Origin: Octopus vulgaris
Taxonomy: Eukaryota
NCBI GenBank assembly: GCA_951406725.2
Contig: OX597838.1
Location: 14,632,001-14,696,000 of the forward strand
Reading direction: 5' to 3'
Length of the DNA: 64,000 nucleotides
Positions 12,482 through 63,839 of this stretch are shown here, one piece after another. The notes under the pieces were generated by a model. It did not search any database and was not told where the DNA came from. It was given only the letters and a program-made list of their open reading frames with translations. Each line of letters begins with the position of its first letter. The first letter of the stretch is position 1. The position numbers were made by a program, and so were the translations under genes.

Positions 12482-12529
<48 letters not shown>

Positions 12530-12540
12530 AAAAAAAAAAA

Positions 12541-12769
12541 ACACAAATCTACCTTCTCTATAATGTTGCCACTTGATATGAAAATTTTTGTATTAATGGA
12601 AAACCTCTATAATTGGCTGATGAGTGCTCAGCATTTTAAAACTGTTGTAATACTTACAACATTTAATAACATGATGTAGTACGAAACAATCGTACCAAAT
12701 TACCGGAGTCATTCTTGTTGCTTATTTTGATTATAATCACCCCACGGATTTTTATGGATAACACCATTC

Positions 12770-12774
<5 letters not shown>
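12541..12774 (+). mobile_element. Probable Penelope-like retroelement terminal fragment inserted in (TA)n
   Basis: Unique ~230 bp segment between two (TA)n tracts that carries a minimal type I hammerhead, a known feature of Penelope-like terminal repeats. Confidence 0.55.
12610..12702 (+). ncRNA. Type I hammerhead ribozyme with canonical core
   Basis: Stem I taattgg(12610-16)/ccaaatta(12695-702). CTGATGA at 12617-23. Stem II GTGCT/AGTAC extended by the internal hairpin tgttgtaa-tac-ttacaaca. GAAAC at 12683-87. Minimal stem III AC-aatc-GT, with the GUA cleavage triplet ending at 12694. Confidence 0.8.
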
Positions 12775-12860
<86 letters not shown>

Positions 12861-12870
12861 TAATTGCTTC

Positions 12871-16333: not shown

Positions 16334-17016
16334 GGCAAAGGAAAGACGGAAAATAGAAGATACGAGAATTTATTATTAATCACGACAATTGTTTTGACAC
16401 ATTTAGCATCGGTTCCTCATGGGTGGGACAGACACTCAACAACTGGTTCAGGAGCATCCGGTGGTGCAGATTTATCTTGTTGGGTAATGAATAAACACAA
16501 CCTGTTAAAATGACTGTTCCGCAGTGTAACTTCCCGTTTTGTAGAAAGGAAAGCAGCCACACGGAGGAAATATCTTCGTTTATATATAGAAGATCAAAAA
16601 TAAAATCACAGATGGCAAAAAGAGAAACGAACATGCAATCCATCGAGAAAAGTATTAAAAATAACCGTTGACAGATATGGATGTATAAATGCCCTTGGGC
16701 AAGCTGCATGGCGCGAGTACACTTGTTCATACAAGCATCTGCAAAAATGAGAGCATATGCACGCATGAAATTTGCTGCACTCATGATCACAAAGTGAGTT
16801 AGCTTATCTACTTGGTGTTTATAAGAATGGGGAAGTTAAAAGTAAACTTAAGTCATCCATACCTTAAAGTAAATATAATTAAATTAAGTTAACGGTTACT
16901 CAAAATTCATTCTCACTGCATTGTGCAAAAGCACACACATTTATATGCATATAGACATCTCGGGAGTCATTCAGAAATTCTCGTAGGATACCTTCACAGT
17001 GTGTCGATTAAAAATA

Positions 17017-17632
17017 CCATGATACCGATTAGATTTAGGAAAGCACTTGTCCAAAGCAGTTAAGAACTGGTTTATACAGTCATTATCTTTTCAGGGCTTC
17101 TCAGATTAGTAGAAGGTGGAGGAGGAAGTTATCCTCAAAGTCAATTACATCAACCCCAGTATGTAACTGGTATTTATTCTATCGACCCCCAGAAGTATGA
17201 AAGGCATAGTGTGAAGATGGACAAAAGCATTTCACCCGGCATGCTAATATTACTGCCAACTTGCAGCCTTACCAGAGGGTAATGTTAAGCAAGGAAATAG
17301 ATTAAGCTGGACAAGGGATAAAGTCTTATGATCTAAGAAGAAGAATTCAGAATGCAAAGAGTAGTCCTGTAGAGCATCTTGTCAAAAGCTAACAATTTCA
17401 CAACTACACAATCATGGAATGAGACTTTATTGATCTTCAAAGGAAAAACGATAAAGCTGATCTTGGTAGGATTTGAACTTGGAGTGCAGAGATCCAGAAC
17501 AAATATTGTAAGGCATTTTGCCTTACATTTCTTATAACTCTGCCAATTATATACCTATGTATAAACTGTCTGTATAAACCAGTTCTTTGCTGCTTTGGAC
17601 AAGTGTTTTCCTAAATCTAATTGGTATCATGG
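17017..17632. repeat. 63 bp inverted repeats separated by ~490 bp
   Basis: 17017-17079 vs 17570-17632, about 4 mismatches. Confidence 0.9.
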
Positions 17633-43335: not shown

Positions 43336-43435
43336 ATGTTCTCAAGATCCTTAAATAGCTTTTTTCCTACATTGGATATGTCTATGTAAAACAACAACAT
43401 GTACATCTTTTATCTTTTACTGGTTTCAGTCAAAG

Positions 43436-44334
43436 GCTGGGGCCATGCTGGAGCACCACCTTTCAGTATGTTTGGGTCACATTTCTGTAAATGAGTTGGA
43501 CAGAGTCGCTCTTCCTTGTGCCGCCTGCTGCGATGTGTGACTTTACATTTCAGTCGGTTCGATTTCAGATCCTCATCAATTAATTGTCTCACCTTTGACG
43601 TTTCAAATCAGCTGGCTGGGGCCATGCTGGAGCACCACCTTTCAGTATGTTTGGGTCACGTTTCTGTAAATGAGTTGGACAGAGTCGCTCTTCCTTGTGC
43701 CTCCTGCTGCGATGTGTGACTTTTACATTTCAGTCGGTTCGATTTCAGATCCTCATCAATTAATTGTCTCACCTTTGACGTTTCAAATCAGCTGGCTGGG
43801 GCCATGCTGGAGCACCACCTTTCAGTATGTTTGGGTCACGTTTCTGTAAATGAGTTGGACAGAGTCGCTCTTCCTTGTGCCTCCTGCTGCGATGTGTGAC
43901 TTTTACATTTCAGTCGGTTCGATTTCAGATCCTCATCAATTAATTGTCTCACCTTTGATGTTTCAAATCAGCTGGCTGGGGCCATGCTGGAGCACCACCT
44001 TTCAGTATGTTTGGGTCACGTTTCTGTAAATGAGTTGGACAGAGTCGCTCTTCCTTGTGCCTCCTGCTGCGATGTGTGACTTTTACATTTCAGTCGGTTC
44101 GATTTCAGATCCTCATCAATTAATTGTCTCACCTTTGACGTTTCAAATCAGCTGGCTGGGGCCATGCTGGAGCACCACCTTTCAGTATGTTTGGGTCACG
44201 TTTCTGTAAATGAGTTGGACAGAGTCGCTCTTCCTTGTGCCTCCTGCTGCGATGTGTGACTTTTACATTTCAGTCGGTTCGATTTCAGATCCTCATCAAT
44301 TAATTGTCTCACCTTTGACGTTTCAAATCAGCTG
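43436..44334. repeat. Tandem array, 180 bp unit x5
   Basis: Units start at 43436, 43615, 43795, 43975 and 44155. Units 2-5 are essentially identical. Confidence 0.97.
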
Positions 44335-62645: not shown

Positions 62646-63425
62646 ATATATGATGATATATATTTGATAATAAGGAGAATGAAGAATTTGAACACTCTAA
62701 CTTTGGTTATTTCCAGTTAGTTTATTCATGGTAATTGTCTGACATGTGTTTCAGTTGCATTAACTGCATATTGTTGCATTTTTATGTGCAGTGATTTATG
62801 CATTATTAGTACAATCTCTTGAGGGTGTATAAGTATGACATTGTTCAAAGTCTACCAAAAAACGCACCATCTGAAGGAACCAGTCTTGTCATTTTACTAA
62901 GAGAAATTCAGCATCTGCCTGGATATTGTACCCCTTCTCTTACTATATGTGTGTCTGTACGTAGTTGTATGTATATGCAGAGTAGATGAAACCATGGCGA
63001 CTGAAGAAGGGGAATTTTCCTTGTGTTATTTGTCCTGTACTCTATTTTTTCGTTGTTTAAGAAAAATGTCCAGTTCCTTGGTTTTGCGTTTATGATTTCG
63101 TTTCTCATTGTGTTCGACGTTTTTTTTTGGTGTCCTGTACCCATATATGCGTGTATATATATATGTATGTAGAGGTAGGTACGTACATGTATGTATGTAT
63201 ATATGCATATGTTTTATTTATTAATTCATTGTATGTATATGCATATATATATTCATTTGTATGTACATGCTGAAATTGTGTGTGTGTCTGTGTGTTTTGC
63301 CTGTTTTGAATTTTGGGTGCTAGTTGTAAAATGTGCATCACTGTTATACAAGCAGTGTCCTTCCGTTTCCAGTCTTCTTCTTGAAGAAATATTACCCTGC
63401 TTTGAAATGTGTGAGGGTCGGTGAC

Positions 63426-63839
63426 AGGAAGGGCATTTGGCTGTAAAAAAATCTGCCTCAGTGAATTCCATCAGGAAGGGCATTTGGCTGTAAAAAATCA
63501 GCCTCGTTGAATTCCATCAGGAAGGGCATTTGGCTGTAAAAAATCAGCCTCGTTGAATTCCATCAGGAAGGGCATTTGGCTGTAAAAAATCAGACTCGTT
63601 GAATTCCATCAGGAAGGGCATTTGGCTGTAAAAAATCAGCCTCGTTGAATTCCATCAGGAAGGGCATTTGGCTGTAAAAATCAGCCTCAGTGAATTCCAT
63701 CAGGAAGGGCATTTGGCTGTAAAAAATCAGCCTCGTTGAATTCCATCAGGAAGGGCATTTGGCTGTAAAAAATCAGCCTCGTTGAATTCCATCAGGAAGG
63801 GCATTTGGCTGTAAAAAATCAGCCTCGTTGAATTCCATC
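63426..63839. repeat. Tandem array, 46 bp unit x9, inside a SINE
   Basis: aggaagggcatttggctgtaaaaaatcagcctcgttgaattccatc repeated head to tail with no spacers. Confidence 0.97.

Follow-up and report, generated by a model that had tools for sequence, protein, structure and literature searches.

A predicted hammerhead ribozyme with a long, structured stem II in a solo terminal-repeat fragment of a Neptune-type Penelope-like element of Octopus vulgaris

The hammerhead motif at 12610-12702 (+ strand) of the window, by which we mean the whole 64-kb stretch of Octopus vulgaris DNA analysed here, belongs to a solo, truncated pseudo-LTR (pLTR) copy of a high-copy Penelope-like element (PLE) inserted in a (TA)n tract; in the family's master copies the ribozyme likely works only as a dimer, and the version in the window is predicted to be severely impaired. 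We give this reading a probability of roughly 85%. The element is of a known kind, and its hammerhead is a long-stem-II structural variant for which we found no published description in the accessible literature. The analysis established the family membership of the insert, a pLTR-flanked ORF for reverse transcriptase (RT) and a putative C-terminal endonuclease, the joining of 3' ends to TA tracts and the covariation of the stems. The insert and its surroundings are composed as follows:

12485-12524 (no strand), (TA)20 microsatellite, probably the 5' side of the insertion target
12524-12546 (+), A18 run and five further letters at the 5' junction, outside the element; family similarity begins at 12547
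12547-12775 (+), 229-bp pLTR fragment of a Neptune-type PLE, 96.5-98% identical to the top copies
12610-12616 (+), stem I 5' strand, pairing with 12695-12702 (4 bp, bulged A, 3 bp)
12617-12623 (+), core CUGAUGA, 6 of 7 letters invariant in alignment A1
12624-12682 (+), long rod-like stem II of 59 nt with basal helix, internal loop and apical hairpin (folds of 14 representatives, covariation)
12643-12661 (+), 8-bp apical hairpin of stem II, with compensatory pairs in families A-D
12665-12670 (+), position of the hexamer AAUAAA/AUUAAA present in 8 of 8 representatives of families A-D; mutated in the window copy (C at 12670)
12683-12686 (+), core GAAA (sequence, alignment)
12687-12692 (+), helix III/loop III, in which C12687-G12692 closes AAUC; CAAUCG in the window, palindrome CGAUCG in the family
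12693-12694 (+), U16.1-A17 of the GUA triplet, with the cut predicted at 12694/12695 from the hammerhead consensus
12695-12702 (+), stem I 3' strand (descriptor scan, covariation)
12712-12723 (+), 12-mer rich in U and GU, the same in families A-D and closely followed by the main 3' end of inserted copies (+41 from the cut, 12735)
12775-12862 (no strand), (TA)n/(TATG)n microsatellite, probably the 3' side of the insertion target

The motif is real by a descriptor scan, which found it once in 64 kb on both strands, and none of 100 dinucleotide shuffles of the window produced it. The core elements CUGANGA, GAAA and NUH of a type I hammerhead are present together with three covarying helices, stem I being open-ended, and the base of stem II carries G10.1-C11.1 within five contiguous basal pairs. 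The canonical core, type I topology and stem II of about 59 nt announced by the original prediction are thus all in place. The Rfam search that it had proposed gave the opposite outcome, with no hammerhead match between 10 and 16 kb of the window (E<=10) and none at gathering score in 5 related loci, likely because of the long stem II. Two other readings of the same letters were discarded: a 19-codon ORF starting in the ribozyme core is not conserved as the N-terminus of the main ORF, and stem II is not a 56-nt GT-AG intron (12624-12679), the ends of which are not kept in families B and C; no corresponding intron joint was among those listed for contigs of putative RNA runs.

Relative to the cut, the insert is truncated 148 nt upstream (-148) and ends 81 nt downstream (+81), with (TA)20 on one side and TA/TATG repeats on the other, which bears out the microsatellite-embedded insert proposed earlier. 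The A18 run and five unmatched letters lie on the wrong side to be the element's own tail. The 64-kb window holds no second ribozyme motif and no second element fragment, and at the locus itself neither a long ORF nor a host gene or intron context was found. A weak match to PLE protein on the minus strand at 16983-17069 (E 1.3e-4, 29 residues) is a possible old fragment.

In the 2.8-Gb genome, the segment 12547-12775 returned 2385 first-look candidates, the 40 top-scored ones being 96.5-100% identical to it, and two exact family patterns matched 952 and 645 times with no match in reversed controls, so that the family numbers at least 952 copies. Family sequence also occurs in sequencing runs whose labels name two other organisms. 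Longer copies, followed upstream, lead to the end of an ORF; of 30 loci retrieved with this endonuclease end, 26 have the window segment within 1.5 kb downstream in the same orientation. The full-length copy L090 reads TA tract, pLTR, ORF, 3'UTR, pLTR, TA tract; its pLTRs, 98.5% identical over 326 bp, each carry a hammerhead and lie about 3.46 kb apart, and the window insert shares 91-92% identity with each. Frameshifts or stops interrupt every full-length copy seen. Direct pLTRs with a hammerhead, inverted truncated copies and a one-sided tail are present as in other PLEs. The link to Penelope-like terminal repeats drawn earlier is upheld by the pLTR-ORF-pLTR copies, by the 26 linked loci and by an RT resembling TERT.

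The RT piece has 186 homologues at E<=0.001, the nearest named ones being from Octopus sinensis and Argonauta hians. Its structural model (pLDDT 86, 115 sequences) has TERT as best fold match (E 1.8e-9), with other RT classes close, and the region of the YxDD motif is invariant. The four best fold matches of the C-terminal endonuclease model are GIY-YIG enzymes (T4 EndoII and I-TevI) at non-significant E-values of 0.09-0.18; Y45, G47, H59, C108, C111, E114 and H140, which include CCHH-type residues, are invariant in 65 sequences, as are C11, C13, C19 and C25 of a cysteine knuckle between RT and endonuclease. Sequence searches of the family's ORF pieces against Pfam and PDB were negative; of 6 homologues, 1 gave a Pfam match to RVT_1, at a score under the cut-off. 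A Neptune-type parent agrees with the order of the domains, the knuckle and the targeting of microsatellites, although the knuckle also occurs in Nematis (PMC8557442, accessible sections) and the homologues include no named reference elements.

Like the Neptune EN+ PLEs described by Craig et al. (2021, accessible sections of PMC8557442), the octopus element has a single ORF with RT followed by a putative C-terminal GIY-YIG-type endonuclease, a cysteine knuckle before the endonuclease, CCHH-type residues, pLTRs, inverted 5'-truncated copies and microsatellite targeting. It differs from them in its long Asn-rich linker insertions, in a 3'UTR of 0.5-1.4 kb and in having two alternative tails (+41 and +135) where Neptune has one of 30-40 bp.

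The position of these tails was determined on 95 distinct copies from 89 loci, drawn from the first 100 of 952 places matching the 20-mer just downstream of the cut. The 3' ends fall at +41 in 48 of the 95 and at +131-135 in 32, the other 15 lying elsewhere; both main ends are at TATA-like words, and a TA run directly follows 77 of the copies. None of the 95 ends at +81, and the 3' end of the window copy is for this reason read as a rare start or a later deletion. The 5' ends are scattered upstream of the cut, with none at 0-1 nt, 5 at 2-10, 24 at 11-78, 9 at 79-95 and 57 beyond. The cut site was thus rejected as the 5' end of insertions, and we infer that RT copied through the ribozyme from an uncut or re-ligated RNA template. 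In the mechanism that we propose, the endonuclease would nick a (TA)n target and RT would begin at a site internal to the RNA, past the ribozyme. Helix III would form by palindrome pairing between two ribozymes of one transcript, tandem or pLTR-ORF-pLTR, and the transcript would thereby be trimmed. Long stem II would be an RNA rod under selection, its most likely role being that of a structural or protein-binding arm in place of the usual short hairpin.

A comparable situation was described in the Poseidon element PAc of Anolis, where reverse transcription begins at an internal site, chiefly on uncut RNA, and cleavage depends on the protein (Frangieh et al. 2024, accessible sections of PMC11167929). 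Both elements have fixed internal 3' ends past the ribozyme and AT-rich targets, with no ends at the cut; PAc belongs to a different clade, and the octopus ORF, unlike that of PAc, starts about 175 nt after the cut and not inside stem II. With none of our 95 copies starting at the cut, the octopus family extends what was seen in Anolis, where the inserted copy is likewise not delimited by the cut.

Several features of the ends are worth recording. At window position 12608, 87-88 nt before the cut and at the TATA word preceding stem I, there is a small cluster of 5' ends (4-5 of the 95), for which microhomology, RT pausing and a start site are candidate causes. Contigs with unrelated upstream sequence join the family at L004:1668-1698 and 1744-1777 (window 12714-12744 and beyond); these join points are the two short motifs preceding the preferred 3' ends, which suggests that other elements share these ends and may borrow the family's RT. 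At L137 (G000:C1:131403836-131403881), an inverted pair of copies is folded back at the helix III palindrome with arms ending at +41 and +135, and several further inverted pairs have the same unequal tails.

The distribution of ends also bears on whether the insert could be a non-autonomous retrozyme or SINE-like unit and not a piece of an autonomous element. Tandem retrozyme-like units with long stem II do exist in this genome (family E, with a 534-bp period), and animal retrozymes derive from pLTRs (accessible sections of 10.64898/2026.07.22.740005). However, the scattered 5' ends, copies running continuously into 3'UTR and ORF, the match to both pLTRs of L090 and the lack of tandem units of the window sequence among those seen largely refute this possibility, as does the fact that no sampled copy shares the window's 3' end; we regard it as very improbable. 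The octopus family does resemble animal non-LTR retrozymes in its type I hammerhead with a weak palindromic helix III; it differs from them in belonging to a coding element and not to a tandem non-coding unit (accessible sections of PMC7229834 and 10.64898/2026.07.22.740005).

At the level of the family, loop III, noted earlier as one change away from a palindrome, is indeed palindromic: GAUC (CGAUCG) was found in 99 of the first 100 listed of 645 pattern matches. Helix III in 61 sampled whole-motif copies reads CGAUCG in 30, CAAUUG in 9, CGAUUG (with a wobble) in 9 and CAAUCG in none, the 13 others being different. In 7 of 48 gap-free family copies a U-A pair of stem II is replaced by C-G, with both sides changed in all 7, and 6 of these 7 also carry the palindrome CAAUUG. 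The same motif with a 57-60-nt stem II occurs at 11 of 20 loci with diverged RT matches (families B, C and D; RT about 78-80% identical), making families A-D four sister families. Four unrelated families, E-H, identified in flanking sequence with 252-1445 candidates each, have stems II of 49-62 nt and the palindromes CAAUUG, CAUAUG/CAUGUG, UGGCCA and CACGUG.

The covariation check proposed with the original prediction came out positive, the stems covarying across families. In an alignment of 14 representatives, 89.9% of the cells are paired against 70.2% after shuffling, 13 of 18 pairs show double changes (reached in 3 of 500 shuffles) and the covariation score is 0.606 against 0.226, slid controls giving at most 0.16; since these representatives were hand-chosen with a descriptor demanding the basal pairs of stems I and II and the outer palindrome pair, this covariation is partly built in. 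Evidence independent of the descriptor comes from the inner palindrome pairs, from the apical helix of families A-D and from single folds. The apical helix is only 75% paired in the 14-representative alignment because families E-H do not align there. Stem II folds as a rod with an internal loop and an apical hairpin, with z <= -3.3 in 11 of the 13 representatives from outside the window and z of -2.0 and -1.6 in the other two. The hammerhead descriptor found no match in two shuffles of the 1.13 Mb of fetched sequence. Long stems II are not universal in this genome, where stems of 12-14 nt also occur.

Family E (L248-L267, e.g. G000:C5:104301196-104304530) is a near-identical 534-bp tandem repeat with 1445 candidates, the unit of which holds a type I hammerhead with a 49-nt stem II and CAAUUG; one copy ends on a TA tract, and the family has the appearance of a retrozyme of very recent origin. 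Families F, H and G (L208-L227, L228-L247 and L268-L287) are high-copy repeats bearing hammerheads with stems II of 50-62 nt and different palindromes. Family F has two preferred TA-fused 3' ends, as does the window's family, and AAUAAA just after the cut. PLE protein matches occur in 1, 1, 3 and 4 of 20 loci of families F, H, E and G respectively, several of them from neighbouring elements, and the link of these families to ORFs of their own is weak.

Compared with the majority of 28 gap-free top copies (of 29), the window copy differs at 12670, 12688, 12768 and 12771. The description of its ribozyme as intact consequently holds for the core letters and fails for 12670 and 12688, both inside the ribozyme. 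A12688, a CpG-type change, breaks the palindrome (CAAUCG, found in 14 of 645 copies), and the predicted energy of the helix III self-duplex is +0.3 kcal/mol for the window against -10.0 kcal/mol for the family form. C12670, nearly absent from all other sequences, is predicted to destabilise stem II, reducing the pairing of the closing pairs of stems I and II to 0.16 from 0.85-0.94; the MFE fold of the window copy is not the hammerhead fold. This low value is not proof of death, because several intact representatives likewise prefer another fold when taken as single 106-nt monomers (stem I probability of 0.0-0.12 in B1, B2, F2 and H).

Could the window copy nevertheless be active in a host intron or read-through transcript and cut host RNA after 12694, as a monomer or in trans? 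All its core letters are present, a hetero-duplex of its palindrome with a family-form partner is predicted at -4.0 kcal/mol, and contigs of putative RNA runs contain family sequence that covers the motif and in some cases spans the cut. On the other hand, the copy is solo with a broken palindrome and a weakened stem II, and no host gene was identified; the runs are only guessed to be RNA, and their contigs give no reading of strand, ends or activity. PLE hammerheads moreover act as dimers with low activity, single metazoan motifs giving no detectable cleavage in vitro (accessible sections of PMC4209133). Activity in a host transcript thus seems improbable, and the self-cleavage after 12694 suggested as possible for this copy is disfavoured by its solo state, broken palindrome and predicted pairing of 0.16. 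As judged from these predictions, the solo copy in the window is probably a dead passenger.

The hexamer in stem II raises the question of what the long arm carries. In families A-D it reads AAUAAA in 7 and AUUAAA in 1 of 8 representatives, starting 30-32 nt and ending 24-26 nt before the cut; in all 6 sequences checked (66-71% AT) no other hexamer of this kind lies in the 270-550 nt upstream, and shuffled stems place a poly(A) hexamer there in 1-10% of trials. It is mostly unpaired in A1, B1 and C, within the internal loop of stem II, and the U/GU-rich 12-mer identical in A-D follows the cut by about 17 nt. A hexamer, a cut site and a U/GU-rich downstream element make up the layout of a textbook bipartite poly(A) site. 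The long stem II of families A-D might accordingly exist to carry a poly(A) signal, with host cleavage at about the ribozyme cut and the two processings in competition: host 3'-end processing would yield mRNA for translation, and ribozyme cleavage RNA for transposition. The conserved hexamer, the shared 12-mer and their geometry speak for this idea, which we hold as tentative and rather unlikely. Against it, families A-D share ancestry and 22 of the 61 stem II columns are invariant, so that common descent may account for the hexamer; it is absent from the long stems II of families E-H; the 12-mer is equally explained as an RT start determinant, 48 of 95 copies ending just after it; and no poly(A) loose end was among those listed for contigs of 6 putative RNA runs. 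The 12-mer is a candidate for an RT start determinant, a downstream poly(A) element or both. In its broadest form, the idea would make stem II of a cephalopod Neptune-type lineage a 60-nt regulatory arm displaying a poly(A) signal and switching between mRNA and transposition RNA, within a long-arm class found genome-wide and missed by standard models, a doubtful proposition at present. We continue to favour a structural or protein-binding arm.

Type I hammerheads with a palindromic helix III in PLE pLTRs are well established (accessible sections of PMC4209133, PMC6765202, PMC3088659 and PMC7229834). The octopus family shares with the metazoan PLE hammerheads of Cervera and de la Pena (2014, accessible sections of PMC4209133) the type I topology, full core, G10.1-C11.1, short stem I and minimal palindromic helix III, as well as presence in both pLTRs, a majority of solo or truncated copies and inverted pairs nearby. 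It departs from the hammerheads presented there in lacking an extra unpaired base after A9, in its 6-nt palindrome and in the hexamer inside stem II. The main difference is the length of the stem II domain, 57-60 nt in this family and 49-62 nt in the others; it does not exceed about 23 nt in the 44 rows consulted of the alignment in the PMC4209133 supplement, which came from a search with capped stem sizes. Octopus stems II are hence 2-3 times longer than the published PLE examples compared.

Full-text literature searches brought up no paper describing PLE hammerheads with a long stem II, PLE hammerheads of octopus or a poly(A) signal inside such a ribozyme. By word search, the Octopus vulgaris repeat paper makes no mention of ribozymes (PMC13282606) and PMC2377424 has no passage on polyadenylation; the accessible part of the paper on the giant squid goes no further than a count of 235 Rfam hammerheads (PMC6962438), and those of PMC12602865 and 10.64898/2026.07.22.740005 add nothing on hammerhead stem length.

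Taken alone, the window locus is a decayed transposon fragment, one of about a thousand, and the family-level result is of modest importance. A structured stem II of 49-62 nt with compensatory changes in at least eight families means that PLE hammerheads are not always minimal, and at this length they are missed by Rfam and by size-capped descriptors. The long stem II offers a removable arm for testing what PLE hammerheads do. Should the overlap with a poly(A) site prove genuine, a retroelement would offer a case of a ribozyme connected to host 3'-end processing.

Other arrays and duplications were encountered during this survey. A decayed family copy is amplified inside a tandem array of roughly 8.9 kb (G000:C29:29653124-29689468), and another lies inside a duplication common to several contig ends (L063-L065, L069). 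The window contains young tandem arrays at 43435-44334 (5 x 180 bp, 99% matches) and 63425-63839 (9 x 46 bp, 96%). A young Neptune-type family (L288-L317, e.g. L303) has many open frames of 717 codons and 2590-bp tandem and inverted arrays; its candidate hammerhead has the core variant CCGAAGA, a stem II of about 31 nt and a 7-nt helix III.
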